Positions 1 through 54,063 of a stretch of 54,063 bases of DNA are shown in pieces. Source of the stretch: Prorocentrum cordatum (Eukaryota); contig CAUYUJ010000267.1 in the NCBI GenBank assembly GCA_963575745.1, forward strand, positions 62,001 to 116,063, given 5' to 3'. How positions within the stretch are numbered: position 1 is the stretch's first letter; each line of letters opens with the position of its first letter. The notes below the pieces were generated by a model. It was not told the origin of the DNA, did not search any database, and saw only the letters and a program-made list of their open reading frames with translations. The translations under genes and the position numbers were made by a program.

Positions 1-19
1 TATTTCTACACATTTCAAT

Positions 20-260
20 CGAGGGAGAGAGAGAGAGAGAGAGAGAGAAAAAAAAAGAGAGAGAGAGAGAGAGAGAAACAGACAGACAGAGAGAGAAAGA
101 GAGAGAGAGAGAAAGAGAAAAAAAAACAACAAAAACACACACTGACACACAGACGCACAGACACACAGACACACAGACACACATACAGACACGCACGCGC
201 ACACGCACACACACACGCACATGCACACGCACACACAATCCCAAAAAACACAGAAACCAA
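20..260 (+). repeat. (GA)n/(CA)n compound microsatellite
   Basis: Direct reading. Confidence 0.95.
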
Positions 261-2560: not shown

Positions 2561-3299
2561 CCCTGCACGCCAAACACGCATGCGCCGAGCCCAATGCTGT
2601 AAGAGAGAATGGCAGGATTCGACGCTCGAAGAAAGTGAACCAACCACAGGATGTAGAACCAAGAAGAACAAAATGGTAAGCATTCATAAAAACCTGGCTG
2701 AAGGGCTCAAGGCCCTGCCGGAGGTCTGAATACCCCTGGATGGCCGCCTGTTCGAAACTTTCGCCCCACTTCGTCGCCCAGAAAAAACGGCGCACGCGGT
2801 GCTGCAGCCTAGGCGCCCCTCACGCGCCAACGTGGAGGCGTGGGGCGTGACGTCGAAGCTGCGGAGGGAAAGGAATAGGGAAATAAGGATTGACATTTAT
2901 CAAGGAGGCCCTTGCGGCCGTCTGCACGCAGACGGACGTCAGGGCCCCAGATGTCTCGCGAGCGCCGCGCAGCCTCGAGCACGTCGCGCGGGCGCCGCGG
3001 CGACGAGGGAAGGGCCCCAAGGCAGCCCGAACAGGCATCCAGCCGACCCTGGCCTACCCCGAAGGCTAGCCAGGGGGGCGGAATCCATCCCCGCGGGGAC
3101 AAGAGCGGGCAAACCCAGCTGCCGCCAGCGGCCGCTCGACCCAGGCGGCGGCGGCCCCCAAAAACCGGGGGGGGGCACCGCGCCAAAATTTCGAGGCGCG
3201 CCAGCGGGATAGAGCACGGGCCCGCCCCCGCGCGGCGCGGCGGGCGGCCGGGCCGAGCACCCGAGGCTCATCTCCCGCGCTTCTAGGGGACAAAAAACA

Positions 3300-4790: not shown

Positions 4791-4812
4791 CACGAGCCAA
4801 AATGGCTACGGA
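4791..4812 (-). other. Relict dinoflagellate spliced leader (DinoSL)
   Basis: Minus strand reads TCCGTAGCCATTTTGGCTCGTG versus DinoSL DCCGTAGCCATTTTGGCTCAAG: 20/22 identical, 19 contiguous. Confidence 0.93.
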
Positions 4813-5299
4813 AGAGGAAGAGAAGGAGAGGACAAGGAATTACATCCGCAACATGGGGTTCAACGTCAAAGACCTACGCATGTACCTTGCGCGCTTCTGA
4901 CAAAATCGGTTGCGATTGGATGTGCGACGGCCCGGCCTTCTCACTGGGGCCGGCGGGGGGGGGCATGCCACTTTGCTCAAAGAGTGAGCTCCGAGGTGGC
5001 CCCGCAGGAGGAGGTTCGCTACCTTCCGATTGCAAGTCGATCCCTGCGGGCCAGCGAGTGGGGAGCGGCCGCTGGCCCGCCCGCGCGCCCGGGGGGAGGG
5101 GGCGCGCGGGATTAGCAGTGCGCCCGAGCAACGGGGGAGGAGACGACGACGCGACAACTCCAACAGGAGGAGGGGGGTGGGTCGGGTGGCCCGCGCTCCC
5201 AAACTATGGCTGGGTGACCTGGTTGCCCTACCGGTTGTATTATATTATCTCCTCCCCCGCTCGGCCCGCTGCTCTTTCGCCTCGATCTGGCCGATAGTT

Positions 5300-7800
5300 G
5301 CCCAATGCACTGTCGCATCTGTTCTCTGATACCCTGCTGTAGCATCCCACTGTTCCCTCTGGAAGCGCATGCGGGTTAGAGCATGCTGGTAGTCACACTG
5401 CGTTGTAGGCGGGGTCATCGAATGGACTTCGCGATGGTCGTTTCTCTCCCGTTCAACACCCTGCAGTAATGCACCTGTCGGCACTCGAAAAAATACTTCA
5501 CATTGTGATGGCAGTGCGAGCACTCCGTGACTGCCCATCCTGTTTGCCTAGAATGGCACACTGGAAAAAACCTCGCACAGGCAAATCTCGGCTGTCAGTG
5601 GGATCGCCCAGCTTGCCCAGAATACCCCTCCGAAAAAACCTCGCGAATGCCTCTCTTGGCTTTCCACTGGGCTCCAATGGTGCTCTCGCTGGCGGCCGCT
5701 GGAGGAGCTGGCCGTCGTCGTCTCCTCCGACTTGGGGTTGCCGAGCTTTTCCTCGAAGATCTCGGTGCCATCCAGCAGGGTCGGCGTGCTGTTTCGTAGC
5801 TCCTGGCGCTCGTTGAGCCTCTTGACGTCCTCTGGGTCGAGATTGTCCTCGTTGCTCAACTCCTTTAAGGCGACCATCATGACTTCGCATAGCTTATCTT
5901 CGTCGTTCTTCGATACCCCCAGCGACAGCTTGCACCTGCTCTGCACAATACAGGCCTTCCTCCTTGCCCGTTCCACGGATCACCTTACGGAATGATCGCG
6001 CCCTTTGACCTTGTGCGTCGCCGGGGGGGGGCGCGGGGGCCAGCTCAAAATACCGGCGTCGTAGAATGGGCAGAGGCACTTCTTGATGGCGTCGTCCAGC
6101 TGCTGCGGCAGCCTTTCCGCAGCGACCGCCCCCCGCCCATTTCCCGCCTTGAGCTCCACCGCCATTGACTGCCCGCTTTTGCACCGGATGCCTGGCCGCC
6201 CCTTGCAGTCGTCGCCGAGCGTGCCATTCGTCTTGTCCACCCACTCTTTCATGGGCTCATCTGCGGGGTGGCTCTCCTGCGCCTTGACGAGCTGTGACCA
6301 GTCCACCCTGCGCAAGGACTGCCGCGCGCCCCCTCTCGCGTAGGGGCTGGGGCCCCTTCCGCCGCAACTTGTTTGGGCAGGCAAGCCCGCGCGCGCAGGC
6401 ACCGCCCCTCTTTGCGCCCCGACCGGCGCCTCTTTGCACGCATTGAACAGCTGCGCGCCGTCGCCCCACTCGCCCGCGAAGTCCAGCGCCGCGAGGTACG
6501 CCGACTGTTGTTCTGCCATGTTCTTCGCCGTCTTGTAGACGCCCTTCGCGTGCAGCTCGTTCTCTTTCCCATCGAACTCTTGGTTTGCCGCTTTCTGTGC
6601 ATCTTCGTCATTGATGTCCATGGCCATGAGCCTGTTGAGCAGGATGTCGCATTCCTCTGCGCAGCGTAGAGCTTCTGTCATGCTTTCTCCTGCGCTGCTA
6701 AAGGCTGCAAAGATGCAACCGTTGATTTCAATATCCTCCAGCTGCGCCTTTGCCATCTCCTCTACCTTCTCGCGGGCCGACTGGCCCCTTGCAGTGCAAG
6801 GCTTTTCTATGGGTCCTCTTCTTCCGCCAAGAGCGCTTGCGCTGCTTTGACCTGCCCCATGGCCTGGGACACCCGCGCGGCCCCCGTTGTTTTCGCCCCC
6901 TTGTCTCGGCCGACCTGCTCTGTCGAACAAACTCTCCTCCATGCAGAGTCTTTTCACCGTCGCCCCATTATTCCCACTCCTCCTGCCTCAGCTCCAGCTC
7001 GCAGTCGACGCGCGCTCTCTTCCGTTGACGGCCATTACCTCCTTGCTCTTTTTTTCACGGCCGGGTCATTTACTTGCCCCCCCCCCCCACGTGGCCCTCG
7101 ATCTTCTCGTATTGCCCGAGCCCTGTTTGGCGCTGCCCGCGGGGCCATGGCCGGCTGCTGCCCGCGATGGACATGGGCGGCCCCCCCGCGCCGCGCGCTC
7201 CGAGCGACCCCGCAAGTGCGCAACAGTGCGCGCCTGGGCCGTCGTTGAGCCAGATCAGCTGCGGGATCCGAATATGAGCGATAGATTTGGCGGTGGTTCC
7301 CCATCTGCCTCGTTAATCGCGCGGCGCCGTGCATGCTGGCCCCATTTTCCCCCACTGGCCGCGACCCGTCTCTACGTTGTGCGCGCGCTGTGCAGCATGC
7401 GCAATGTCTCGCCCGCCAACCCCCCGTATCTGCAACGGAAAGAAGGAAGAACATAAACGACGTGTCGCCATGGTAGACGCTGTCGTTCACCGTCGACGAC
7501 GGGCGGACCGGCTGCTGCCAAGGAGGCTCATCCCCGGGGCATGTCCTTGCAACTCCGCCCCCCGTTCTTCTCGGAACTTTAGGGCCATCTCGTGCGCGCT
7601 GCCGCCTGGGGCAATGCGTCTGAGTATAGCGAGGCGTTCAACTTTCATGCTGATTGAACCCGCTATCCTTTCATCATGTGACAGGTGTCTCTTCCTCTTC
7701 GCCCGTGCGCTGTTGGGCGCGCCAGCTATGCCCGACTGCCTGGGGAGGGCGGGGCCCCCTGGGGCAACGCCCTCATTGCTCGATGCTGGCGCAATCGGAA
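5300..7800 (-). pseudogene. Decayed intronless coding remnant, probably from an unidentified mobile element
   Basis: ORFs 5980..6957 and 5548..5976 and segments near 7550-7700 have helical, charged, protein-like composition unlike the GC-artefact ORFs. The region lacks microsatellites. No domain recognised. Confidence 0.45.
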
Positions 7801-7821
7801 ATGCAATGTAAGTGCTAGTCG

Positions 7822-8880
7822 CTAGTCCGCGTCAGCCGCGGCCTCGCACTCTGCCCCGGGGTCTATGCACCCCGGGGCACTCTCGCGAACGCAACTGCCC
7901 CTCGCGTCCTCAGCGACGCCGCGCTCTGAGATAACCTCGCCGACGCAACAGCCCCTTTCCATCCTCAGCGGCGCCGGCGCTGCATCTCCCGCCCCGCCAT
8001 CCTGTCCAGCTCCGGCAGGGGCGCTGCCGACGGGGACATCATGCCTCCCACGTAGACGATCAGCATCCCCACTGCTATCCTCAGGTTGCGGCCCGCGAAC
8101 TGGCCCAGCTTCGCCGTGGCTTCTTCCTTCATGTCCTCCGGGGGCACCGCCCTGAAATTGGGGGACGCGTTGATGCCGATCTGGGCCTTGCCTGAGCCCT
8201 CCTCCCAGAACTCCTGCTCGTCGTCGTTCGGGCTCCTCTTCTTGTTGCTGCGAGCCTTTCAGCCCTCGCCGACCTTGCACATCTCGGTCGCCTTTGTGGA
8301 CATGGCATGGCTGTGCCCGCAGTTGTCCTCCACCGGCTTCTGGAAGTCGTTCAGGGCGTCCAGTGCCCGATCTATTGATGCTGACATTGCCGTTGGATCT
8401 GTTCTCTGCCAATGCGACGCCATCTCCTGGATGCCCTCCATGAGCGCCATCCCCGTGCGAATGCCTGGTGGTCCCATCTTGCGCCCCTTGCCCTTTTTCC
8501 TGACCTGGTCCCCGCAGTTCGGCCCGCTGCCAACGACTTCCGAAAAGACCTAGTGCGGACTGGCATGGGGTAGAAATCCGACGGCACGTGGTTCCCACTT
8601 CTGATCTCTGCTGCCAAGCGGAGGGCCAGACGCTGGAGTCCATTGATGCACCCTCTGAAGTCAAACTCCTCATAGTCATCCGCTGCATATGGCTGGCGGT
8701 GGGGTCTGCGCCCTCCTCCCCCACCTTTGCTGCGCCCTCCTGTCGCCGCGGCCGCGGCCGCTGGCGAGCTGCCCGCGGCCTCGGCGATTGCCAATCCTGT
8801 GTGCCACAGGTAGATTCCTTTTTCCCTTGCCGCCCCTGTGATGCTTCGGTTATCCTTCCGTCTCCGCGCTCTCTCCACCT
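7822..8880 (-). pseudogene. Decayed ORF of unknown function immediately 3' of the LINE zinc fingers
   Basis: Protein-like segments across frameshifts: LQRLALRLAAEIRSGNHVPSDFYPMP, DQVRKKGKGRKMGPPGIRTGMALMEGIQ, KLGQFAGRNLRIAVGMLIVYVGG. Confidence 0.5.
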
Positions 8881-8924
8881 TTGGGCGGGGGTAGCCCCCG
8901 CTGCGCCATCACCATCTTTCGCGC

Positions 8925-9915
8925 AGTGCGGACAAGGATGGTGGCAGCGCGCGCGAAGCTGAAAGCCTCCAAGGGATTGAAACCAAAAGCCGCAGAGGGT
9001 GCAGACAAGGGAAAGGGGCTCTTGGACTGGGTGATTCCAACAACGTCTCCTGCTGTAGCAAATCCTGTGGCTCCCAGCAGTCCACATGACATGGTCGGTC
9101 GTAACTTTCCTGACGCGGGAGAGCTCGGGCACCATGGGCATTGATTCGTTAACACCAAACTGGGGATCAGCGGGAGACAGTTGTGCACTACTCTCCCGTG
9201 CACTGCCAGCGCCGCCGCCGTAGTAAATTGAGTCCCGCGCACCTGCCCCACCGGTCCCAGTTCCCCAGATCGCGCCAAAACTGAACGACCAGTTAGCATC
9301 CCACCGTAATTTTTGATGCCATCGTATCGCAATTTTTTTCCCTGCGCGGCGTTGGATACTGGGGCCCTCCCGAACCCAAGCTTTCCGATCTCGTGTGCGC
9401 TTCTGGAATATTGAGATGTCTGGTTGCCTCCGCGGGTACCAGCCTGCGACGTCATCGATAACCTCCGCCAGCGCCTGCTATTTCCTGACCACCTGCTTTG
9501 CCCAGGGGGTAGATGCTTCGCATGCTCTTCTATTTTCCAAACTCCTGACTTGGCACAGGGTGTCCAACGTCGACGTGCCAACAACTGCTGCCAAGACACT
9601 GCCGCCGTCCTCTGGATATTTCGCCCAATGTCTGTACAACCGTAGCCTGCGGATCCTTCGCGCTGTTGTGAAGCGCGGTGTCCTGCTCGTTGGCGTAACA
9701 CCTCATCGTGCCATCTTCTTCTATCCAGCACAGCCTGCCTCCTGTCATTCTTCCCAATAGAAGCGCCATAATACTGTCGAGTGTTTTCTAGTGACCTGCA
9801 TCCCGCACACGTACCGCCAATCCACGAAGGCTTGTTCCCGAAACAAACGCATGGAACATGCCTTGCTGTGTCTTGTTGGTGGTATCAGAAGACCCGAAGC
9901 ATCCACACGGTCGGT
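8925..9915 (-). mobile_element. 5'-truncated non-LTR (LINE-like) ORF2 remnant: RT C-terminal region plus degenerate C2H2 zinc fingers
   Basis: Manual translation: MFHAFVSGTSLRGLAV...KTLDSIM (resembles the LINE post-RT segment), IRRLRLYRHWAKYPE..VLAAVVG, PWAKQ. Then fingers GQVRGTQFTTAAALAVHGRVVH, TNQCPWC..TDHV and CTLCGFWFQSLGGFQLRARCH with C2H2 spacing. Recognised by pattern only. Confidence 0.65.
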
Positions 9916-10669
9916 AGGAAGGGGAAGGCGAGGACGACGATGCGGAGAAGAAACATCCGGGGGCGCCTCAACATACAACCATCGGTGCTCATATCGGCCC
10001 CACTGTCTACCAACCGATATTGCTGTGTATGAAACCATCCCTGTATACATGTGCAGACATGTATGTATGTCTATATATATACAACTGCATACAACTTAAA
10101 AATGGATTGTACACCTATCGTATACATATACATATATATACATGTATATGTATATATATATATAGTAAGTGTATCCAACATGTCAGACGATATGTTCATA
10201 TAGGTTGGGTTTCGCCCGCCCCATGAAAAAAGGGGATACGGAAAACCGCTCGACGTTTAAAGTAAAACGGCTGCGGACATTGATGGGGATTTTGGGAAAT
10301 GCCGAAACCTCCATCGACCGACGGGTTTGTGCATATGAAAACGCATTATGTATAGATATGTAGGTTCACATGTAGATGTGAATATACAAACGGATTTGTG
10401 TGTACCTGTATATATACATATATATACACATTCATATACGCACCTCTCCGGGGGAGTAAGCAGAGGAGGTTAATGCGTACGCGCCGCGTCGTTCGCGATT
10501 GTTCTGGCCGTTTCGCTAGGGACATCCCCGAAATTCTGAAAATCGTCGGCACCCCTTTTACACAGATCGTGACGTCAGTGTCAAAAAAACACATGGGAAT
10601 TTCAACATTCTAACATGAAATCGCCAAAACCACATTGTCATATCAATGAGCTCGACCCCGATTCTCAGA

Positions 10670-11130
10670 GAATGGCGGTTTCGCCTGAGACATCCTCCCA
10701 AGATCGAGCCCCGACGTACCTTCTGGTACCCCAGACCCCGCCTCACCCCCGCGACTCTGGATTCCGAGATGCCCTGCCCCATGGTGGTCTGGCCATCTTC
10801 GCCTGCGACATCCTCGCAACTCTAAACCTCGGAGGTGTCCTGCCCCATGGAGGTCAGGCCACGTTCGCCATCCACGCAACTCTGGGTTCCGAGATGCCCT
10901 GAACTGAGGCGGTTCAGCCACTTCCGCCTGAGACATCTGCCCTATCCCGTGGTGGTGTGGCCATTCTCGCCGGGGACATCCTCGCAACTCTGGGTTCCAA
11001 GATGCTCTGAACTCAGGTGTTCAGGCCACTTTCGCCTGAGACATCCTCGCAACTCTGGGTTCCGAGAAGCACTGAGCTGAGGTGGTCAGGCCACTTTCGC
11101 CTGAGACATCCTCGCAACGCTGACCTCGGA
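10670..11130 (+). repeat. Degenerate minisatellite, unit up to ~65 bp, core TTCGCCTGAGACATCCTCGCAACTCTGGGTTCCGAGA
   Basis: About 7 variable copies; period 65 between 11031 and 11096. Confidence 0.85.
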
Positions 11131-11377
11131 GAGGCATTGCCCTCGTCGACCCTCCTGCTCGATCCCCAATCCTTTGGGAGGGGCTCTTACTCGATCTTCG
11201 ACTCTTCTGCGTTCACCTCCTGCCTCTTCCCCTTCTCTTAGGCACGCACTGGCGGCGCCGCCCCAGCTGACCCTTCTCCATCTCCGATCCCGCCGTCATG
11301 GTGTCTTCCTGCTTCAAACGCCCTTTTCAGTTTTTTTGTTTGTAAGAGCCTGGGCACACACGTTCCACTTGTAGATA

Positions 11378-11382
11378 TCCAT

Positions 11383-11414
<32 letters not shown>

Positions 11415-11482
11415 ATGAATATATGTGTATATACATTTATATATATATATGTGCGTATGTATATATACATATATATATGTAT
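11378..11482. repeat. (TA)n/(TATG)n microsatellite (similar at ~10040-10170, 10400-10440, 23935-23980, 36075-36200)
   Basis: Direct reading. Confidence 0.9.
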
Positions 11483-12621
11483 ATCGGTTTCCGTATCCGC
11501 CACAGTGCCCTGAGGCACGAGTGTGAGTGTGCTCAGGTCCCTTCGGATTCTCTGCATTGGGTTCTATGCCATGTTTGGAGAAGCCAAAAGCATGGAGCAT
11601 CCAAGACGGCCAAGAGGCGCCCAATATTGCCCAAAAACTGACCAAATGCCCCCAAGAGGGGCCCAACAAGTCCCGAGGACGACCCAAAGAGGGGCCCGGG
11701 ATGGGGAACACGAGCTGAAATGTTGTGTCCTCTGCCCCATGATAGCCCCCAGATCCGCCTGGAAGCCCCAGGGCTGGGTCCAAGATGCCACAAGAGACCC
11801 CCAAGAGGCCCCGAGAGGCCCAAATCAGGCTCCAAGAAGCCCCCCAACACCCCCAAAACCACCTTCAAGTGGTATCCGAAAGGCCTTCCAAGAGACCCTC
11901 ACAGGCATCCAGAAGACCTCTGACCTACAACCCAGGCGCAGTGGCGGGATGGGCCGAAGGCCACTTATTTCGAAGACGCCTGCGGAACCCCTGCCCTTGC
12001 GGAAGCCCCTATGTGGCCGACAGCTGGGCTAGAGCTTGACTAAACTATAGGGCCAGTTGTTCCCCGAGACGATTTGGAGAACCTTCGGGGAACGCGTGGG
12101 GGAGCAAGAGGTTTGAAAGCGCCCGTGTGTCCAAACGTTGTGGCAAGAGCTCTGCCAAGCTATCAGGCCATGTGTTCCCTCAAACGTTGTGGAAACCCTT
12201 CGGGGAAAACTTGGAGGATGGCAGGGAAGATCAGAAAAAAGTGGAGGAGGAAAACCAGAGAGCGGAGGAGAGGAGGAGGAGGAGGAGGAGCAGGAGGAGG
12301 AGAGGAAGATGAGATGATGAGGAGGGGGAGAAGGAGGAGGAGGAGGAGGAAGAAGAGGAGGAGGAAGAGGAGGACGGGGAACCCCGGGAGCCTCTGGGGG
12401 CACTCTTTGGGCCTCCTGAGTGCTTCCTGGGAGCCTCTTGGAGGCATCTTGGGGGCCTCCTTGGATCTGGATACGCATATGTAGACCGATAGGACCACCC
12501 TACGGGTGATAGGGAGGTTGGGGGGGAGAGGGAGGTGGTCGATCTGCGATGACCCACACTTGCCGCCACCCAAGAGAGCCCCGGCAAATAAATACCACCT
12601 ATCTCCGGTATATCTATCAAG

Positions 12622-13480
12622 CGTCGGGACAACCATCGGGACAACCGTCGGGACACCAATCGTGGCAGCCATCGGGACAGCCATCAGAACAAGTATGGGA
12701 ACAACCATCGGGACAACCATCGGGACAGCCATCGGGACAACCATCGGGACAACCATCGGGACAACCATCGGGACAACCACCGGGACAACCATCGGGACAA
12801 CCATCGGGACAGCCATCGGGGCAACCATCGGAACAACCATCGGGACAACCATCGGGACAACCATCGGGACAACCATCGGGTCACATATCGGGACAACCAT
12901 CGGGACAACCATCGGGACCACCATCAGGTTCAAGCATCGGGACAATCATCGGAACAACCATCGGGACAACCATCGGGACAACCATCGGGACACCCATCTG
13001 GACAACCATCGGGACAACCATCGGGACAACCATCGGGACAACCATCGGGACAACCATCGGAACAACTATCGGGACAACAATCGGGACCACCATCGTGACA
13101 CCCATCGGGACACCCATGGGGACTACCACCGGGACAACCATCGGGGCAACCATCGGGACCACCATCGGAACAACCATCGGGACAACCATCGGAAGAACTA
13201 TCGGGGCAACCATCGGGACCACCATCGGAACAACCATCGGGACAACCATCGGGACAGCCATCGGGACAACCATCGGAACAACCATCGGGACAACCATCGG
13301 GACAACCGTCGGGACAACCATCGAGACAACCATGGGGCCAATCACCTGGACAACCATCTGGACAACCATCGGGACCACCATGGGGCCAACCATCGGGACA
13401 TCCATCGGGACAACCATCGGGACAACCATCGGGACAACCATCGGGACAACCATCAAGACAACCCGCGGGACAACCATGGG
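12622..13480 (+). repeat. 12-bp minisatellite (GGGACAACCATC)n, about 70 copies
   Basis: Direct reading; source of the spurious GTTI/RDNH/SGQP/VVPM ORFs. Confidence 0.97.
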
Positions 13481-14566
13481 GGGGCCGCGCCCGGCGGGGG
13501 AGGGGGAGCGGGGGGTGGGGGGCGACCTTTTGGGCTCCATGTGGCCTCTACACCTGCAGGAACTCGCGCAGCTTCTCCTCGCCCGCACGGACGACACAAA
13601 CCGAAACCGAAGCCGATCTCCCAGTTGGGGGCCACTTCCGTTCACACCCCCCAACCTCTGATGTATGTGCATGTGTATCTGTATATGACTACGCCTATTA
13701 ATATGTGCATGTAGACACGGACATCTGCTCTTCACCCTGGGCGGAACAGGCCACCGGTCACATCTACGGACCACTGGGGGACTCGGGTCGGACGAGAAGA
13801 AGGTGTCGTACGCAAGGGTGGGGGGTCGGAGCATCAGCTCGTGCAACGACTTTTCCCAGCACTCCACGGCTCCAGAGGCACAGAATGCATCGAGAAGAGC
13901 GTCCAGCGGCGGGGCTGGAGCCAGCTGCGTGCAACTCATGTCGTACCCCCCCCCCTCCTTTCCCTATCCCCCCCCCTTCGTCGGGCCCGATGGTCGTCGA
14001 CCTCGACCATGGCCCATCCCGCCCGGTTGCGCTCGGGCGAAGTTGAGGAGGCGGAGGCGGCCCCGCCCGCGTGGATCCTTCCCTGGACGTGACGTTGCGC
14101 TCGCGCGCCGCATCCGGGGAGGGGGAATGGGCCGAGGACGAGGGACGGGGAGGAGCAACACAGAAGAGCAAAGAACCGTCAGCACCAACGTCTCCCTGAG
14201 CTGCGAGACCAAACAAACTTCGGATGCGAGCGGCCAGTAAAAGAGACTTCCCTCTGAGAGGGCGATCTGTAGCCTGTCGGCGGGGCGTCATAGAAGCCTG
14301 GAGACGGTCTCGTGTGCGAGGGAGAGAGGGAGGAGGGGGACGAAGTCCAGGACGTCGAGGCGGGATGCGGCGAGGATTCCAGGATTCTAGGCTGGCCGCG
14401 CGCGCGCCCGCGGAGGGGCGCGAGGTCCAGGCAGGAAAGGAAAAAAGGTAACCGCCGACTGCGACGACGAAGGCACCGACGAAGACGAAAAACGACGGCA
14501 GAACGACACGACGACGACATAGGAGGGACGCAGCTTGAGGGCGAGGAGGGTGAGAAGCCCTGGAGC

Positions 14567-27783: not shown

Positions 27784-27942
27784 CTAGGTCGGGCATGTCC
27801 TCCTGCAGGCGGAGCTTGGAAGAAAATGAAACATGGGGAACACATGCTCAAAAACAGTTCAACATAGCCAAACAAACATCCCCTGACTATTTGTTCGACT
27901 ATTCTTGAACATTCCTCCTGTAGAGGGCCATGCCCGACCGAA
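27784..27942. mobile_element. MITE family E copy
   Basis: CTAGGTCGGGCATGTCC...GGCCATGCCCGACC; TSD matches at 6/8 (CCGTAGCT/GTGTAGCT). Confidence 0.8.
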
Positions 27943-31651: not shown

Positions 31652-32218
31652 GACCCTTCGGCATGCGTGGGACGCTTTTCCGTTTGAGTCGTCGTCGTCG
31701 TCCGCCCTTCCGTGCGTCCGCGTCCTCGTCCTCGTCTTCGTCGTCGTCGTCGTCGTCCTCGTCCTCGTCCCGCTCCGAGCTCCCCTCCTTTCCCTCGGCC
31801 CCCCTCCTTGAACGATCCAGTCCAGACAACGTAACCGATTAAACGTCGCAATTTGGTTGTGAAGCCCTGCCTTGTGTTACCCTTCTGCCTGGGGGGGGTC
31901 CGGGTCCGGGGAGTGTGTCCCCCCGGGGCGTACCCCCCCCCCCCCGCGATCCCCCCTCCTGTGGACAAATAGGCTGGGGGGGTGGTCTCCCCATCGGCAG
32001 GGGAGATGAGGGCCCCTCCCCCCGCCTCGGCCCGGGCCCTGGCTCCAGCCCGGGCCCCAGCAAAGAGACCGAGAGGCTCCAACGAGACCCCTTCGGCAAG
32101 CGAGGGAAGCTTTTCCGTTTGAAACATCATGGTCGTCGTCGTCGTCCTCGTCCGTCGTCGCCGTCGTCGATGCCGTCGTCGTTGTCGTCGTCGTCGTCGT
32201 CGTCCGTCGTCGTGGTCC

Positions 32219-32249
<31 letters not shown>

Positions 32250-32286
32250 CGTCCGTCGTGGTCGTGGTCGTGGTCGTGGTCGTCGT

Positions 32287-32329
<43 letters not shown>

Positions 32330-33301
32330 GTCGTCGTCGTCGTCTTCTGTCGTCGACGTCGTCGTCGTCGTCCGTCGTCGTCGTCGTCGTTGTCGTCGTG
32401 GGTCGTTGTCGACGTCGTCGTCCCGTCGTCGGTCGTCGTCGTCGGTCGTGTCGTCGTCGCCGTCGTCCGTCGTCGTCGGCTCCGTCGTCGCGGTCGTCCC
32501 GTCCGTTGGTCGTCGTCGTCGGCGGCGTCCGTCGGTCGTCGCGTCTCGTCGTCAGCCCGTTCGAGCGGTCCTGTGTTGTTGTGGTCGTGGTCGTCCGTCG
32601 TCGTCGTCCCCCGCGTGTCGTCCGACGACGTCGTCGCGCATCGCCGACCGTTGTCGTCGTCGTTCGTCGTGGTTGTGCTCCGTCGTCGTGCCGTCGTCGA
32701 CGATCGCGTCCCGCGAGGCGTCTCGTCGGTCGTCAGCCGTCGGCGTGTCGTGTCGTGTCGTGTCTACGGGGGGTCGTCGTCGACGTCGTCGTCGTCCTCT
32801 TCGTCGGTCGTCGTCGTCGTCGACGACGTCGACTTCGGCGTTGTCGTCGTCGTCGTCCGTCGTCGGCGTCGTCATCGTCGTCCGTCGTCGCAATCGTCGG
32901 CGTCGTCGTCGTCGTCGTCGTCGTCGTCCTTGTCGTCGCCGTCCGTCGTCGTCGTCGTCGTCGTCGTTCGTCGTCTGCGTCGTCGTCGTCGTCCGTCGTC
33001 GTCATTCGTCGTGGTCGTTGTCGTCGTCGTCGTAGACGTAGTCGTCGTCGTCGTCCGTCGTCGTCGTCGTCGTCGTCGGCCCCGGCCCTGGCTCAAGCCC
33101 AGGCCCCAGCAAAGAGACCAAGAGGCTCCAACGAGACCCCTTCGGCAAGCGAGGGACGCCTTTCCGTTTGAGTCACCATCGTCGTCGTCGTCGTCGTCCT
33201 CGTCCGTCGTCGTCGTCGTCGGTGTCGTCGACGCCGTCGTCGTCGTCGTCGTCGTCCGTCGGCGTCGTCGTTGTCCGCCGTCCGTCGTCGTGGTCGTGGT
33301 G

Positions 33302-33333
<32 letters not shown>

Positions 33334-33478
33334 AGTCTGGCGTGGTCGTCGTCGTCGACGACGTCGACGTCGTCGTCTCAGTCGTCCGTTGTCGTCGTCC
33401 GACGTCGTCGTCCTCGTCCGTCGTCGCCGTCGTCGTTGCCATTGTCGTTGTCGTCGTCGTCGTCCGTCGTCGTCCGTC

Positions 33479-33513
<35 letters not shown>

Positions 33514-33648
33514 CGTCCGTCGTGGTCGTGGTCGTGGGTCGTTGTCGACGTCGTCGTCCGTCATCGTCTTTGTCGACGTCGTCGTCCGTCATCGTCTTCG
33601 TCGTCGTCGTCGTCGTCGTCCGTCGTCGTCGTCGTCCGTCGTCGTCGT

Positions 33649-33684
<36 letters not shown>

Positions 33685-34279
33685 GTCGGCGTCGTCGTCG
33701 TCGTCGTCGTCAGCCGTCGTCGTCCTTTTTTGTGGTCGTGGTCGTGTCGTCGTCGTCCGTCGTGGTCGTCCGACGACGTCGTCGTCCTTCGTAGACCGTT
33801 GTCGTCGTCGTCGTCGTGTCGTCGTCGTCGTCCGTCGTCGACGTCGTCGTCGCCGTCCGTCGTCGTCGTCGTCGTCGTCGTCGGCGTCGTCCGTCGTCAA
33901 CGTCGTCGTCGTCGTCGTCCGTCGTCGTCGTCGTCGTTGTCGCGTGGACGACGTCGACGTCGTCGTCGTGTTACGTCGTCGTCGACGACGTCGATCGTCG
34001 ATCGTCGTCGTCGTCGTCGTAGGTCGTGGTCGTGGTCGTGGTCGTCGTCGTCGTCCGTCGTCGTCCGTCGTCGTCGTAGTCCTCGTCATCGTCTCGTCGA
34101 CGTCGTCGTCGTCCTCTTCGTCGGTCGTCGTCGTCGTCGACGACGTCGACTTCGTCGTCGTCGTCGTCGTCGTCGTCGTCCGTCGTCCGTCGTCGTCATC
34201 GTCGTCCGTCGTCGCTCGTCGTTGTCGTCGTCGTCGTCGTCTTGTCGTCATCGTCGTCGTCGCCATCGCCGTCGCCGTT

Positions 34280-34321
<42 letters not shown>

Positions 34322-34613
34322 TCGTCGTCCATCGTACGAATCGTCCGTCGTCGTCGTCGTCGTCGTCCGTCGTCGTCGTCGTCGTCGTCGGCCCCGGCCC
34401 TGGCTCAAGCCCAGGCCCCAGCAAAGAGACCAAGAGGCTCCAACGAGACCCCTTCGGCAAGCGAGGGACGCCTTTCCGTTTGAGTCACCATCGTCGTCGT
34501 CGTCGTCGTCCTCGTCCGTCGTCGTCGTCGTCGGTGTCGTCGACGCCGTCGTCGTCGTCGTCGTCGTCCGTCGGCGTCGTCGTTGTCCGCCGTCCGTCGT
34601 CGTGGTCGTGGTG

Positions 34614-34645
<32 letters not shown>

Positions 34646-34830
34646 CGTCTGGCGTGGTCGTCGTCGTCGACGACGTCGACGTCGTCGTCTTCGTCGTCCG
34701 TTGTCGTCGTCCGACGTCGACATCGACATCGACGTCGTCCGTCGTCGTCGTCGCCGTCGCCGCCGCTGTCGCCGCAGTTGTCGTCATCGGCGTGTGCGTC
34801 GGCGTCGACATCGACGTCGTCGTCGTGATC
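31652..34830 (+). repeat. (GTC)n-derived macrosatellite, 1.0-1.3-kb units separated by a conserved ~100-bp spacer
   Basis: Spacer GGCCCC.GCCCTGGCTC.AGCCC.GGCCCCAGCAAAGAGACC...TTTCCGTTTGA at ~32029, ~33078 and ~34390, partial at ~31652. Confidence 0.92.
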
Positions 34831-35054
34831 GTCATCCCTCCTCCTCCTCCTCCCTTCTTGTCATCCTCCTCCTCCTTCTCTTCCTCCTCCTCCTCCTCCT
34901 GCACATCCTTTTCCTCCTCCACAGCGTCGAACTCTCGACCCGATACTCCTGCGGCCCTTCTCTCGACCCGGGCCGATCCGCGGGGGGGCCCGGGGCAAGA
35001 ATATTGGGAGAGACGGCTCGTCGTGCATCTTTCGCGACGCTGAGATGCCAAGGA

Positions 35055-35225
35055 TTGGCAGCGCGCCCACGGGGGTTGGGTGGGAGGGGGGGGGCTTCTT
35101 AGAAGGAGGCCGCTTCTTAGAAGGCGCCAGCCCTACATCTTTAGAAAAGGCCCGCGCCTTCGAAGAAGCAGGGATGCTTCTAAGAAGCCTCCCCCCTCCC
35201 CCTACTCCCTTCAGCGCGTGGCCGA
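35055..35225. mobile_element. MITE family F copy flanked by a 28-bp duplication
   Basis: Colinear with the 17715 copy. ATCTTTCGCGACGCTGAGATGCCAAGGA at 35027-35054 recurs at 35226-35254 with one extra G. A partial copy lies at about 26830-26900. Confidence 0.85.
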
Positions 35226-37174: not shown

Positions 37175-37517
37175 TCGGCGACGAGCCTGCGTCGGCGGTG
37201 GACAAGCCTCCCTTTAGTAAACCTCCCTTTAGTAAACCTCCTTCTGGGCCTAGGACCGAAACCGAGAACGGAAAACGGCCTATTCCTTAATCGGCGTGTC
37301 AGGGTAGGAGGTCCATCAACCTCCGACTTGGGGGGGAGGTGAGAAGGCGCGGGACTTCAAAGACTGCTCGGAAGCCCCCTGGCCTCCTGAGAAGTCTGCG
37401 AAGCCTTCCCCTAGACACAGACAGCCTCTCAGAAGGCGCCAGGGCTTCTGAGACGCCCCACCGCATTCTGAGAAGGCCTCCTCGTCCTCCTCACCTCCCC
37501 CCCTCACTCGCCGCAGA
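37175..37517. mobile_element. MITE family G, inverted copy containing a nested family A copy
   Basis: Reverse-complement similarity to 38497-38695, also visible as similar ORF peptides EEAFS.(C/G)GGASQK..RLLR. Confidence 0.65.
37192..37326. mobile_element. MITE family A, diverged and internally deleted copy nested in a family G copy
   Basis: Shares CCTCCCTTTAGTAAACC and GAAAACGGCC..TTCCTT.ATCG.CGTGTCAGGGTAGGAGG with the 22013 copy; TSD decayed (CTGCG/CTTGG). Confidence 0.75.
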
Positions 37518-38243
37518 GATATGCCAGCACCCTCGTCAGGATGTACAAGAACGTCCAGCAAGCACGACGAACACCAGAGTACCCTCCCCAAACCGACCTC
37601 GATCTGATACTTCGGTCCGACTGTACGCCGTTCTTAGAGGAAGAAAGCGCACATAAACATCAACGTTCGACACTCCGCGCGGACTTCTTGGATTTGCGCT
37701 GGGCCCCACTCTCTGGCGCGCGGAGCACGCCAGGGGCGGCGCCGGAGGCGCCGCCGGGGGGGCTCAGCGCGGATGAGGAGGATTGGGGAGGAATAGGAAG
37801 AGCAACAAGGAGGAGGAGGAGCAGGAGGAGCAGGAGAAGGAGAAGGAGCAGGAGGAGGAATAGCAGGAGCAGGAGGAGGAGGAGGAGGAGGAAGAGGAGG
37901 AGGATGAGGGGGAGGAAGAGGGGGAGGGGGAGGGGGAGGGGGATGGGGGAGAGGGGAGGAGGATGGAGGAGGGAGGAGGAGGAGGAGGAGGAAGGGAGGA
38001 GGAGGAGGAGGAGGGAGGAAGGGGGGATGAGGGGAGGGGGAGGAGAGAAGGCAGGGGGAGGAGGAGGAGCAGGAGAGGAGCAGGAGGAGGAGGAGGAGGA
38101 GGAGGAGGAGGAGGAGGAGGAGGAGGAGGGGGGGAGGGCGGACCGGACGCGGTGCCCTCCGCGGCGAGGCGCCGCCACGGCGCAGGGGGGCGGCGCGGCC
38201 TCTCTCGGGGCGCTCCTCTGCGCTCCAGGACGGGCGGAGGCGC

Positions 38244-38286
38244 CTGTCCTCCTTGAGGCTGTGGTCTACCTCGATGACCCGGGAGC
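38244..38286 (-). CDS. SEC61A: Sec61 alpha exon (G-SRVIEVDHSLKED-R)
   Basis: 43 nt, phase-compatible on both sides; GAG|GC acceptor, AG|GC donor; resembles the conserved GSKIIEVD..LKEDR loop. Confidence 0.92.
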
Positions 38287-38292
38287 CTCGCA

Positions 38293-38454
38293 TTAGGTGG
38301 GGCATGTTCCCCCACAGGCGCATTTGGGGGGGAGGAATGCAAGATGGCCTAAAACATACGCAAACATGGCCAACCATGGTCGAAACATCGTGCTCCAGAC
38401 TCTTGTTTGACTAGTTCTGAATATTCCTCCTGTAGAGGGACGTGCCCGACTTAG
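38293..38454. mobile_element. MITE family E (8-bp TSD, hAT-like) at a Sec61 splice acceptor
   Basis: TIR TTAGGTGGGGCATGT / ACGTGCCCGACTTAG; perfect TSD GCCTCGCA at 38285-38292 and 38455-38462. Confidence 0.88.
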
Positions 38455-38496
38455 GCCTCGCAGGAGTGAGTAAAGAAGACGCTGCAACATGCAAAC

Positions 38497-38695
38497 TCGG
38501 CGGCGAACGAGGGGGGGAAGGGAGAAGGAGGAGGCCTTCTCAGACGGCGGCGGGGCTTCTCAGAAACACTCGCGCCTTCTGAGAGATGCTTTAGGCTTCC
38601 GGGGAAAACTTCGCAAACTTCTCAAAGGCCCGGGGACTTCCGAGCCTTCTGAGAAGGCCCGCCCCTTCTCACTTCCCCTCCTCGCTTGCCGCCGA
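38497..38695. mobile_element. MITE family G
   Basis: TIR TCGGCGGCGAACGAGG / CCTCGCTTGCCGCCGA; internal TTCTCAGA/TCTGAGAA motifs; inverted homolog at 37175-37517. No clear TSD. Confidence 0.7.
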
Positions 38696-38959
38696 GCGAG
38701 TGAAGAAGAGGCTGCGAAGTACAGCTCTCGGAGCTCCGCGCGTTTTCTGTTTGATTGATTGTTTGAGCTTGTTCCCCATATCCTAAGATGGGATTAATGT
38801 GATTACTTGGACGCCTCTTACTCCTTCCTCTTCTTCTTCTCCTCCTCTTCCTCCTGATACTCGGACTTCCTCATACTCGGACTTAGTCATGCTGAGACTC
38901 ACTCATACCCAGACTTACGCATACTCAGACTCGTTCCCAGACGTATTCATACACAGACT

Positions 38960-40680: not shown

Positions 40681-41264
40681 CTTTTGCGTTGTGTCCCGAG
40701 TGGCTCTCCCCGCTGGTATGTTCACCATAGCACTACCCTACAATCTGGGATGCACATATGGCTCATATGGCTAGACGCTCATTTCAATATCCCAAATACA
40801 ATATTACCTCTTGCTAAGGATGCACATATGGCCAGCTCCACGCAGTGAGTAATTGTCGCTTGAGGGGGAGACGCAGGGATCACCGCCACCGAGCACTCAT
40901 CGGGGTGCGAAGTATCGCCGACTACATGCCCGTGTTCCCCCCGAGCAACCCCAGGAGGAGAAGGAGGAGGAGGAGGGGGAGGAGGGGGAGGAGGGGGAGG
41001 AGGGGAAGGAGGTGGGAGGAGGGGAGGAGGGGGAGAGAAGGGGGAGGAGGGGGAGGAGGGGGAGGGGGAGGGGGAGGGGGAGGAGGACAAGCTAGGTGCG
41101 CTCGCGTCATATCTGACGTCCTACCCCTCCCTCCCATCCCTTACCATGGCGCTGATTTTCTCTATCCGCGGACGCGTGTCGTAGCAGACCTGTGGCTCCG
41201 CGCGCGCGTGCGTAGTGGGTGGTGGTGCACGTGCGTGCGTGCGTGCGTGCGTGTGTGCGTGGTT

Positions 41265-41480
41265 GTCGTGGTGGTGGTGGTGGTGGTGGTGGGTGGTGGT
41301 GGTGGTGGTAGTGGTGGTGGTGGTGGTGGTGGTGATGGTGGTGGTGGTGCTAGGTGGTGGTGGTGGTGGTACTGGTGCTGGTGGGTTGGTACTGGTGGCT
41401 GGTGCTGGTGGTGGCTGGTGGTGGTGGTGGTGGTGGTGGTGGTGGTGGTGTGGTGGTGGTGGTGGTGGTGGTGGTGGTGC
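41265..41480 (+). repeat. (GGT)n microsatellite
   Basis: Direct reading. Confidence 0.95.
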
Positions 41481-42759
41481 GGCGCGGTGGTGGCGGGCGG
41501 ATGGGCGCGCGAGAAAGAGGCCCGCGCTGGGGCGAGAACGCCATCCTGAACGACGGAGGCCAAACACCGATCCGAAAATGAGGCCCACGCTGCAGCGGGA
41601 GCACGATTCGGAACGATTCGGGAGCAGAAATGAGGCCGGCGCCTCAACGAGAGCAGCATTTTGGGAAAAAATGACGCCGGCGCCTCAGCGAGAGTCGTTT
41701 CCCGGGATTTCCCGGGAATCCTGTGTGTAAAAAACAGTACGCGGAGGGTGCGCGGCCATCACCCGGACGCCATCAGGGGAAGAGGGAGAGTATTTTCATA
41801 TTGAGTAATTGTAGGAGGAGGAGGAGGAGGAGGAGGACGATGAGGAGGAGGAGGAGAGGAGGAGGAGAGGAGGAGAGAGGAGGAGGAGGAGGAGGAAGAG
41901 GAGGAGGAGGAGGAGGAGGAGGAGAGGAGGGGGGGGGGGGAGGTAGGAGGAGGAGGAGGAGGAGGAGGAGGAGGAAAGAGGAGGGGAGGAGGAGGAGGAG
42001 GAGGATGAGGAGGAGGAGGAGGAGAAGGAGGAGGAGGAGGAGGACCTCTCCATCCTCTCAGCCCTCGGCGGAGAAGCAGGGACCACTGCCGCCGAGCCCT
42101 CCTCGGGGGGCGGTCCGGCCCCTGGGCCGCGGCACGCCTGGGCGCCGCCCAGTACAGGACGACGCTCAGCTGCACCCACCTGCACGAGCGGCGAGCATGT
42201 ATGAAGGGGCCCTGGGACGCACAAATAAATACACACAAATAACAGGATTCCCTATATTTTCTCATATTTCCTAGGTTTTTGTCTTCCCCCCCGACCTCCT
42301 ATATTTTCCTATATTTTCAGGGGGATCGACGATTAATTGTGTTTTTTCCCCTGCTGAATGTATGTGGCCTCGCGGTCTGGATTCCAGCAGGGCTCGATCC
42401 CAGACACAGTGGCTGCCCATGCCAAGAACCACACTGCCTGCCTCCAGTGCGCCCTGGGCTTCTTCGGTTTCGATATGGTTTTGCTATGGAAAGTGTGACG
42501 GTCCCACACGAGAAATCCATGGACGTCCTGGGGTCTCAGGGTTGAGTTTCTTGTGGAAAGTTTCTTGTAGACTTGCGGTCGCGCGGACACGCTCCGCGCG
42601 GACCATACGCAACCAAAAAAACACGCTCCGCGCGGGGCTTCTGGGGAAAGGGACGGCAAAAACACGTTCCGCTTTGCCGTTTTCGTTGCCGGCTGCGGCG
42701 CTGTTTAGCTTCCGGTTCAATCTCCGCTGGTATGTCCCGGTTCCGGCTCTGGCTCCAAT

Positions 42760-43198: not shown

Positions 43199-43903
<705 letters not shown>

Positions 43904-45180
43904 TCACCATGGAACTCCTAGCACCTCTGAAAACCCTTGCAGACTCGAAGAAATCCCAACAATAGAACGCACGAGAACCCTTTCAACCTCCTTCCACCGT
44001 CCACCACCCCAGTCACCATGCAGGTCAACAAAAAGCAACGGGAAGTTCAAACAATCTGCCAAGTGTCGGGCCGCTCCAGCGATGCTGCGCGGCGATGAGG
44101 ATGCTGGGGAAACGGCGGCCGGAGGATAACGGCGGGGTGAGGAAAGACTGGCGAAGGGGGGCGAGGAGGAAGACGCGGAGGGAGGTGGCGGACGAGACGC
44201 GAGATGGTGATGGAGCAGAGGAGGATGCTGCAGCGCATCGCCCCGTTCCGGGTCTCATCCCCTCCTCCTCCTCCTCCTCCTCCTGCTCCTCCTCCTCCTC
44301 CTCCTCCTCCTCCTCCTCCTCCTCCTCCTCCTCCCAGGAGTCCCTACACAACTATCTTCCACTGCGGCGAGGCCCCACCTTGAATGGGGAGCGCACGGCG
44401 GGCCTGCCAACAGAGGCGAGACCCCGCCATGCAGAGGGTCCACATCTATCCCTCTTGGCATTCCCAGGTGCAAGTAACGAGGAGGAGGAGGAGGAGGAGG
44501 AGGAGGAGGAGGAGGAGAGCGGCGGGGGGGGGGAAGGATGGGGGGGCATTGGAGCAGGGAGTGCAGTCTCCGAGAAGAAGATGAATAAGACGAAAAATAA
44601 GACAAATAATAATAATAATAAGAAGAAGAAGAAGAAGGAACATAAGAAAAAGTTCAGCGCAAAAGAAACGTTCAGCACGCCGAGTAGATCAAAGGGGCTT
44701 AGATCAGGCTCGCCTGAGGAACCATGCAGTCTCTCTGAGCTTTCACGAGGCGGCCATTACAGTGCCGACGGCGGCCGTTGACCGTCAATCGAAACACTGT
44801 TCTGAAGAATGTGGCATGAGCCCCACTGCGCCGAAATCTTTCCACGGAATTGGCAACGCAAGCCTAAGCTTCGCACTCAGCTGCTTCTCTGCGGGGCAGG
44901 GCCTGCGATCGCGGCCAACGCCCACGTGGACGCTGTGCTGTGGCACTGGGCCTGGTCCGGGACCCCGATCCGCGGACTGAGGCGCTGTGGCCTTCGCCTG
45001 CATTGCCTGGGCCAATAGAGCAATGAAGGGGCTCTCACTGGGAGGTGCGACCACCCAGGGACGTAAGCGATCGTGGCCGTTCGGGGGGGTGCCCAAAAAG
45101 GGTCCAGAACGCGGAATTCCCCTGTGATAGACCTCCACCCAGGACAGCTCATCGAGGCTGGAGTTGCCAAAAAATTACCC

Positions 45181-45331
45181 TTAGGTCGGGCATGTCCCCC
45201 GTCAGGCGGATCCTGGACGGAAAATTAGAAAAGACCCGGAAAGTGGTCAAAACTTGCTCAACAAATCGTCCCCTGACCATTTTCTTACTATTTCTAAATG
45301 CTCCTCCTGCAGAGGGACACGCCCGACTTGA
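45181..45331. mobile_element. MITE family E copy
   Basis: TTAGGTCGGGCATGTCCC...GGGACACGCCCGACTTGA; TSD decayed. Confidence 0.8.
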
Positions 45332-53218: not shown

Positions 53219-53375
53219 TTCTCCAACACAAAAAACGAGAGAATGATGTCGAACGCTTGCCGAAGTGCCCGAAGGTCGCTCCCTCAGGAGGTGGTGACGG
53301 ACAACTCTCCGCCTGAGACCGGCTTCCGCATGGGGTTTGGGAAGCTAGCGGTCTTGCGCCTAAGTCTGCCTAGGG

Positions 53376-53559
53376 TTAAGTCGGGCGTGTCCCCCTGCAG
53401 GGGGATCTTCGACGAAAAATAAAAAATATCCCCAACATAGTCAATCCAAAAATAGTCTGGGGACTATTTTTTGAGTATTCTTTGACCTTTTTGGGGTATT
53501 GTGGAGTATTCTTTATTTTTCTTCGAAAGTCCCCTTATAGGGGGACACGCCCGACATAA
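53376..53559. mobile_element. MITE family E copy
   Basis: TIR TTAAGTCGGGCGTGTCCCCCT / AGGGGGACACGCCCGACATAA; perfect TSD GCCTAGGG; AT-rich palindromic interior. Confidence 0.9.
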
Positions 53560-54063
53560 GCCTAGGGCCTGGTTCCCGCAGCAAAACCCCTCGTCATTCA
53601 TCGATCCCCCGAGCTGTGGCGCTGGCTCCAGTCGGGCCTTCATGGCCGAGGAATTTGGAAGAGCATTCTGAAACCACATTGTCGGCTACACGTGAGAGTG
53701 ACCCTGGGCAAGAGTGACCTTTGGTGCGCGGCTTTTGGGGGGCCGCGGGGAGGCCAAATCCAGGCGCGCTAGCCGCTGCTGCCGCTTCGCGTTCGGCCGT
53801 CTGGGGGCCCATCTGTGCCCGCACCAAAGGTCACTCCGGCGGAAGGTCACTCTTACGTCTAGTCGACATTGAGGGGCAACGTTGGGGTGGGGACCGGCGG
53901 CTCCGGTGGGGGACACAGCCAGCTGGAATCGGCGATACAACGTCGGTAGAACGGCGACAAGCCCCCATCCCAGCGTGCCTGGGCGTGGTGGGCTATCAGG
54001 CCCGTATCGGCGATGACAGGGCCTCTAGGGGTTGATGTATCCTTCAGTAATTACATTCTACTT

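Follow-up and report, generated by a model that had tools for sequence, protein, structure and literature searches.

The DNA analysed here, referred to as the window, is a stretch of 54,063 nt from Prorocentrum cordatum (contig CAUYUJ010000267.1), and on its minus strand it carries a Sec61 alpha gene, of which the 5' portion is included. The 3' splice junction that ends intron 3 of this gene carries a miniature inverted-repeat transposable element (MITE), enclosed by two copies of an 8-bp target-site duplication (TSD), TGCGAGGC. The TSD spans the AG|GC acceptor junction of the intron, which is a GC-AG intron of 5,124 nt, upstream of the 43-nt exon C. The same AG|GC junction therefore borders, on each side, a unit of 170 nt. 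All positions below are those of the window and all sequences are given on the gene strand unless stated otherwise. The features at the junction and along intron 3, in the order in which the gene is read, are the following.

43505-43411, minus strand: exon B of Sec61 alpha, ending ...VMQLLAG (CTCGCAG), followed by a GC donor at 43410-43409
43410-38287, minus strand: intron 3, 5,124 nt, GC...AG, including the MITE and one TSD copy
38459-38481, minus strand: AG-free zone of 23 nt before the proximal AG, CGTCTTCTTTACTCACTCCTGCG, pyrimidine-rich
38455-38462, minus strand: proximal TSD copy TGCGAGGC, with an AG at 38458-38457 and then GC; the original acceptor with the old pyrimidine tract
38287-38456, minus strand: GC...AG unit of 170 nt, made of 2 nt of TSD, 162 nt of element and 6 nt of TSD
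38293-38454, minus strand: MITE copy of 162 bp, family E, with imperfect terminal inverted repeats and the most decayed hairpin of the four copies
38289-38348, minus strand: AG-free zone of 60 nt before the distal AG, inside the MITE, with a pyrimidine tract at ~38347-38326
38293-38295, minus strand: TAA stop, in frame when splicing uses the proximal AG or one of the three AG|GH sites within the element (H is A, C or T)
38285-38292, minus strand: distal TSD copy TGCGAGGC, with an AG at 38288-38287; the exon opens with the GC at 38286-38285
38286-38244, minus strand: exon C, 43 nt, encoding (G)SRVIEVDHSLKED(R), followed by a GC donor at 38243-38242

The gene strand reads ...CTTCTTTACTCACTCC TGCGAGGC CTAAGTCGGGC...GCCCCACCTAA TGCGAGGC TCCCGGG..., with the TSD copies at 38462-38455 and 38292-38285 and the 162 bp of the element (38454-38293) between them, beginning with CTAAGTCGGGC and ending with GCCCCACCTAA. 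The terminal inverted repeats (TIRs) are imperfect, since the element arms agree at 20 of the first 30 positions. The TGCGAGGC pair is a true 8-bp TSD, because a match at all eight flank positions is improbable (about 2.1 of 8 are expected by chance; P of 8/8 = 2.2e-5) and because the 8-mer is rare, occurring four times in the 54-kb window with both strands counted. A preliminary description of this DNA had proposed the MITE, the 8-bp TSD and their coordinates, and these are borne out by the perfect flank match and by the family copies in the window. The 170-nt segment 38456-38287 does start with GC and end with AG, as was described. A search of 38293-38454 against Rfam gave no structured-RNA match. 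The idea that selection has kept the TSD perfect was dropped: given ~10% private divergence in the TIRs, we estimate the chance of an unchanged TSD at ~0.2, and this is uninformative. By our own arithmetic, a TSD would cover an AG|GH acceptor by chance with a probability of ~3e-3 (three copies, ~35 kb of gene, eight acceptors), a value that is unadjusted for the pre-selection of this case.

The identity of the gene and the position of the splice junction follow from the encoded protein. With a translated exon as the query, 3,452 Sec61/SecY proteins were retrieved, including P0003, which NCBI lists as a Prorocentrum cordatum model, and P0006 (475 aa, JGI source, from a contig of 1,723 nt). Residues 1-143 of P0003 are encoded without any difference by eight small minus-strand exons from 47478 to 14564 (exact-peptide mapping, with exon ends refined by hand from the flanking sequence), and exons B and C are identical to both proteins. 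The last bases of exon B are CTCGCAG, ending at 43411, and GC comes next in the intron. Joining 43411 to 38286 gives ...QLLAG|SRVIEVDHSLKEDR|NLFF, as in P0003, and the same junction peptides are present in P0006. Thus exon C starts at 38286 in agreement with both proteins, and the coincidence of the TSD with the AG|GC acceptor, also claimed in the preliminary description, stands. We listed every AG|G[ACT] from the proximal through the distal TSD copy and checked its frame. Splicing to the AG at 38457, 38430, 38427 or 38349 would lengthen the mRNA by 170, 143, 140 or 62 nt, respectively, all of which are 2 mod 3, and the frame is open solely from the AG at 38287. It had been correctly anticipated that the use of the proximal acceptor, at +170 nt, would shift the frame; translation then stops at the TAA at 38295-38293. 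Because the four upstream AGs shift the frame into this TAA, productive mRNA must end intron 3 at 38287, and we infer that the distal AG is the one used in productive mRNA. An exact scan of metagenome and metatranscriptome contigs with the 43 nt of exon C returned no matches.

The two acceptors had been called identical. This is true over the eight duplicated bases, but their upstream contexts differ, one being the old tract and the other the element. The zone before the proximal AG contains a branch-like sequence, TTTACTCAC (TTTAC/CTCAC), with As 11 and 15 nt from the junction, and it may serve as a branch site. The distal AG is the first AG past the pyrimidine tract of the element, and its direct use is plausible because it has this tract and an AG-free zone of 60 nt of its own. 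A CTAAT does arise across the boundary of the element and the TSD (38296-38292), just before the downstream AG, as had been noted. As a branch site it is less convincing, since its branch A would lie 7 nt from the distal junction. Judging by other spliceosomes, a branch-to-AG spacing of 7 nt is too short. The odd context of the distal AG is not disqualifying, because other acceptors in Sec61 are also without a clear pyrimidine tract; for example, exon D lies behind GC- and purine-rich sequence.

There are three further copies of family E in the window (nhmmer E values of 6e-44 to 3e-41), and a profile of the four copies matches nothing else there. The boundaries of all four were set alike, 4 nt outside a GTCGGGC core. 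The three further copies are as follows.

27784-27942, minus strand: copy E27, in intron 5 of Sec61, gene orientation, TSD 6/8 (AGCTACAC / AGCTACGG)
45181-45331, minus strand: copy E45, in intron 2 of Sec61, gene orientation, TSD 5/8 (AGGTATCT / GGGTAATT)
53376-53559, plus strand: copy E53, almost a perfect palindrome and by its looks the youngest of the four, with a perfect TSD GCCTAGGG at 53368-53375 and 53560-53567

With TIRs, an 8-bp TSD and four dispersed copies of 151-184 bp in 54 kb, family E is a MITE family of 150-185 bp that generates 8-bp TSDs. The 8-bp flanks match at 8/8 positions in the copy at the Sec61 acceptor, 8/8 in E53, 6/8 in E27 and 5/8 in E45. None of the four copies forms a whole intron; three lie within Sec61 introns of 3.9-5.1 kb and one lies outside the mapped exons. 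All three copies within Sec61 are in gene orientation, which is not significant. An AGG on the aligned strand is found in the TSDs of three of the four copies, one of which is ambiguous between its two TSD copies. The nominal post hoc p value ranges from 0.007 (strand-specific) to 0.058 (either strand) with n = 4 copies, and from 0.08 to 0.28 when just the two perfect TSDs are counted (2 of 4). A preference for AGG targets would account for the landing on an acceptor. In six of the eight combinations of element and orientation there is a YTNAY with its A 43-44 nt from the 3' end, and in either orientation the inner 3' part is pyrimidine-rich (0.56-0.69) versus 0.31-0.44 in the inner 5' part. 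Because the element is palindromic, the YTNAY in both orientations is one ancestral feature and not independent evidence. Taken together, the YTNAY and the pyrimidine pattern hint at the build expected of a bidirectional introner. A scan of metagenome and metatranscriptome contigs with a degenerate TIR motif gave 80 loci and no family E member; the family profile (nhmmer) matched 16 of the 80 at E<=0.01, covering just the 22-nt motif region, and the loci were rejected as family members, since matches confined to the motif are due to chance. The folding z score of the acceptor copy alone is -2.3, those of the other three are -5.8, -6.1 and -12.9, and that of the acceptor copy with its flanks is 0.14. 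We therefore dropped the possibility of a hairpin that loops the element out, because with its flanks it folds no better than shuffled sequence and alone it folds weakly.

Intron 3 has other peculiarities. At 43241-43310 on the minus strand there is a duplicated donor, made of the last ~50 nt of exon B, the GC donor and ~20 nt of intron. This copy lies 150 nt downstream, is 86% identical and has the same CAGCTCCTCGCAG|GC context, with a decoy donor at ~43260|43259. A piece from the start of the intron (43400-43330) recurs at 43084-43018 with 79% identity. Thus, intron 3 has both a duplicated donor and a duplicated acceptor. A second, unrelated MITE of 201 bp lies at 38496-38696, 33 nt upstream of the proximal TSD copy. 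Its 53-nt arms are 85% complementary, its folding z score is -10, and a copy with 79% identity lies in the next intron at 37330-37518; the 43-nt exon C is therefore hemmed in by MITEs. In Rfam, the second MITE shows a sub-threshold likeness to MITE-derived miRNA precursors of plants (43 bits against gathering thresholds of 137 and 168).

We propose that a non-autonomous DNA transposon of family E inserted across the 3' splice junction of Sec61 alpha intron 3. A staggered cut spanning TGCGAG|GC, followed by repair, would have left the AG|GC junction twice, 170 nt apart, and the element with one TSD copy would have become the last 170 nt of the existing 5.1-kb GC-AG intron. The insertion could be tolerated because the same AG|GC stands on both sides of the 170-nt unit. 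In gene orientation, the element would supply its own pyrimidine tract and the 60-nt AG-free zone for the distal AG. The same mRNA could then be made by three routes: removal of 43410 to 38287 in one step, which would use a branch inside the element; removal of the nested unit first; or re-splicing after the use of the proximal AG. The one-step route would be the most economical because all three need a working distal 3' site. Overall, an insertion across the acceptor, with the old intron lengthened and the distal AG used, is the explanation that we lean towards. One-step use of the distal AG appears to be the single likeliest main route, a choice that we make tentatively. A two-step route, with both orders taken jointly, is possible and clearly less probable, and substantial unproductive use of the proximal AG seems improbable.

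Several observations weigh against this explanation. The case for the use of AG 38287 draws on frame logic, protein conservation and the deposited model P0003, part of which may be an ab initio prediction. Upstream of the proximal AG, the old pyrimidine tract is complete and the branch-like motif lies at 11-15 nt, and the direct route leaves an exon of 43 nt where the proximal AG would give one of 213 nt. By the logic of exon definition and of the first AG after the branch, the proximal AG should compete strongly. In gene orientation the acceptor copy has no YTNAY at 43-44 nt and has TGCAT there instead. Its TIR hairpin is weak, which leaves a looping-out of the element unsupported. Exons past residue 143 were not found in the window, so that the Sec61 gene is shown to be intact over residues 1-143. 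The proximal context should favour a two-step route or leaky mis-splicing; with intact proximal signals and a short 43-nt exon, both appear viable.

The preliminary description favoured recursive splicing, in which the proximal AG 38457 would be used first via the old branch site and the 170-nt unit would be removed afterwards. The first step would create ...CTCGCAG|GCCTAAGT, a GC 5' site that would then be paired with the distal AG. In favour of this scheme, the proximal AG still has its original pyrimidine tract and TTTACTCAC in the 23-nt AG-free zone, and the unit itself starts with GC and ends with AG, its 3' end being preceded by an AG-free zone and a pyrimidine tract. P. cordatum uses GC more often than any other donor (GT 24.7%, GC 51.4% and GA 23.8%, as given in the genome paper, PMC10666404), and elements of like build are excised as whole introns in Polarella, in the account of Roy et al. 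(bioRxiv 10.1101/2020.10.14.339549). The argument from the regenerated donor is nevertheless weak. An AG|GC is indeed regenerated, and the zero-length-exon juxtaposition TGCGAG|GCCTAAGT is present, but the correct product CTCGCAG|GCTCCC is also AG|GC, intron 3 contains 72 AGG[ACT] motifs (28 of them AGGC), and dinoflagellate 5' splice sites are themselves weak, GHNNNN in the same account (bioRxiv 10.1101/2020.10.14.339549). Two steps would be superfluous if the distal AG is recognised at all, and both steps need this same distal 3' site. The literature listings that we searched, which are weak evidence, contained no report of recursive splicing in a dinoflagellate or in an introner. We consider this order unlikely to be the main one. 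It was the only order weighed before; the nested unit could equally well be removed first, or the unit could never be separately recognised, given that the distal AG has a pyrimidine tract and an AG-free zone of its own. In nested-first removal, the unit (5' site 38456, 3' site 38287) would be taken from the unspliced precursor by intron definition, restoring the pre-insertion ...CTCCTGCGAG|GCTCCC, and the long intron would then use its original branch and acceptor. The AG|GC 5' site at 38457|38456 is available in the precursor irrespective of upstream splicing, and the unit has the size of an introner-born intron together with 3'-end signals. Removal would regenerate the ancestral acceptor and therefore the old signals would stay useful. 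Consecutive splicing of nested introns is documented, in the account given in PMC8469720, for fungal stwintrons. Against this, recognition of the 5' site would require intron sequence to play the part of the upstream exon, and this copy is without the YTNAY of the family at -44 in gene orientation. Nested-first removal is no more probable to us than the recursive order.

An alternative of a different kind is that the proximal AG or the internal AG|GH sites act as decoys and are used substantially, adding 62-170 nt and the TAA and giving unproductive transcripts. In that case the insertion would do slight harm or dampen expression, and high transcription or other copies of the gene would make it tolerable. 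Each of the four upstream AG|GH sites shifts the frame by +2 mod 3 and leads to the same stop, and the proximal site has the better classical context. Intron 3 also carries the duplicated decoy donor (43310-43241), and the locus therefore seems to tolerate decoys. However, Sec61 alpha is an essential, strongly conserved protein, and exons A-H show no damage and match the deposited model exactly. A search of proteins of 94-2000 aa with the peptide that splicing at the proximal AG would add from the element gave no relative, a weak negative, as shared exact 5-mers were required. We regard substantial decoy use as unlikely too. A broader reading, which we hold to be doubtful though a shade more probable than any one of these alternatives, makes family E a bidirectional introner family with an 8-bp TSD, a preference for AGG targets and a built-in branch-like YTNAY and pyrimidine tract ~44 nt from whichever end is the 3' one. 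The Sec61 copy, placed on a pre-existing junction, would make a zero-length-exon ratchet site resolved by two consecutive splicings, either recursive or nested.

The remaining mapped parts of the Sec61 alpha gene are the following.

47550-47447, minus strand: exon A
30625-30571, minus strand: exon D
25745-25690, minus strand: exon E
22424-22387, minus strand: exon F
17694-17644, minus strand: exon G
from 14622, minus strand: exon H

P0006 places an extra exon at 49473-49435. All eight mapped introns start with GC, GA or GT and end with AG followed by G; they are 1.9-7.6 kb long and the exons are 38-104 nt. Direct repeats of 3-6 nt occur across the two junctions of Sec61 introns, e.g., AAG|GA / AAG|GA and CAG|GCG / CAG|GCG. 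When the ends of the eight introns were searched in 60-nt windows for TIRs, a sign of introner origin, none was above the shuffled controls. The G+C of the window is ~0.51-0.68 per 2-kb bin. For the P. cordatum genome, the genome paper gives a G+C of 59.7%, a mean intron of 4,709 nt and AGG at 79.7% of acceptors (PMC10666404). The G+C of the window and the splice sites of the gene fit P. cordatum. The introns of this species are also said there to be enriched in "introner elements", defined in that text solely by short inverted or direct repeats near intron ends (PMC10666404). Exons for the Sec61 residues beyond 143 (P0003 144-210) were not found in the part of the window downstream of exon H (1-14563), and the gene runs on beyond the window. 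The last 56 residues of P0003 are unlike Sec61, and a 10-residue piece matches 31053-31024, out of order; the deposited model is probably partial or mis-terminated. Long arrays of low-complexity, strand-asymmetric sequence at ~31800-35100, 37700-38200, 40900-42100 and 44200-44600 take up much of the introns; whatever the frame, they translate into runs of R, V, S, P or T.

The locus had been presented as a snapshot of the route by which TSDs supply splice sites. Intron birth is not what it captures: an existing intron was extended by 170 nt and no new intron was made. The suggestion that TSDs supply splice sites is right as to the architecture, which equals that of Polarella elements, and the principle had already been published. 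Splice sites of the AG|GH type supplied by a TSD are an established principle, and this locus is a clean single-locus illustration of it in an essential gene. What sets the locus apart is the landing site, where an existing acceptor was hit and a tandem acceptor, or zero-length-exon site, would have been made. In the literature that we searched, no description of an introner insertion onto an existing acceptor was found, which is weak evidence of absence, and the word "Prorocentrum" is absent from PMC12130899. We therefore view the locus as a MITE or introner-like insertion with AG|GH in its TSD, in a position that is unusual and may be informative. Since the AG|GH core is common to the donors and acceptors of dinoflagellates, a ratchet site would arise automatically whenever an acceptor is hit. 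If two-step removal is true, the locus would be the first example in nature of a transposon's TSD creating a recursive or nested splice site. The introner model would be extended from the creation of introns in exons to the extension of introns at junctions, and this would help to explain why dinoflagellate exons often start with GH after AG and why P. cordatum introns are long. If the reading of family E as bidirectional introners is true, old introns could grow by gaining introners at their ends, free of any cost in fitness, which might contribute to the mean intron of 4.7 kb. The locus is useful as a test case, though it will not surprise specialists.

Several known systems resemble this locus in part. 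Drosophila and vertebrate ratchet points are conserved AG|GTAAGT sites that divide very long introns into smaller parts, and intermediates and lariats have proved their use. Like them, the Sec61 motif has juxtaposed 3' and 5' sites and a zero-length exon, and use of the AG regenerates a donor. Unlike them, it arose as a side effect of a TSD, is 170 nt away from the exon and has the minimal form AG|GC, seen here in the DNA sequence. The introners of Micromonas and Aureococcus (Huff et al. 2016) are reportedly MITE-like transposons that carry one splice site and co-opt the other from the TSD, and those of the Aureococcus type are said to have an 8-nt TSD and to be functional in either orientation. 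In the Sec61 copy, by contrast, both splice sites are in the TSD and none is in the element, and the host junction was already a splice site. Maize Ac/Ds, of the hAT superfamily with an 8-bp TSD, is also comparable, as the element is reportedly spliced from pre-mRNA (Giroux et al. 1994, "De novo synthesis of an intron by Dissociation"). Common to both would be removal from RNA, as or within an intron, of an element with an 8-bp TSD; the host and the splice-site code differ. Family E has the 8-bp TSD of hAT elements. The terminal motif of hAT elements is YARNG, and the family E termini (TTAAG, CTAAG, TCAAG / TTAGG, CTAGG, TTATG) mostly have T at position 2 and misfit it.

Stwintrons share nested introns, consecutive splicing and proliferating copies with long terminal inverted repeats, and in them, as described in PMC8469720, an internal intron interrupts the donor, branch or acceptor of an external one, with no flanking duplications in that description. 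We rejected this class for the Sec61 unit, which begins directly behind the proximal AG, itself complete, and extends to the distal AG, so that no splice element is split; unlike stwintrons, it is flanked by an 8-bp TSD and lies just 3' of a complete AG. Close counterparts in architecture are the introner-like elements (ILEs) of dinoflagellates (Polarella, Symbiodinium), which, as far as they are described, are like family E short TIR elements with TSDs, including classes with 8-nt TSDs. In Polarella glacialis, the account of Roy et al. lists 15 classes, some with 8-nt TSDs; in certain classes an AGGH in the TSD provides both splice sites, and one class with 8-nt TSDs gives introns in five frames and both orientations (bioRxiv 10.1101/2020.10.14.339549). 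That account also points out that GH follows the 3' site just as it opens the 5' site; the introns have the form GC/GA/GT...AG|GH (bioRxiv 10.1101/2020.10.14.339549). One ILE class has the termini TAAG/TAGG, and family E is likewise (TTAAG, CTAAG, TTAGG, CTAGG), as compared with the description in the text. At the sequence level, the Sec61 locus has splice sites supplied by the TSD in the manner of an introner, the AG|GC of the TSD making the 170-nt unit GC...AG. The ILEs are, in the published descriptions, whole new introns in the exons of hundreds to thousands of genes with RNA support, whereas none of the four family E copies is a whole intron. The Sec61 copy, seen here at the DNA level, differs from the ILEs in that it sits on a pre-existing acceptor and lengthens an old intron.

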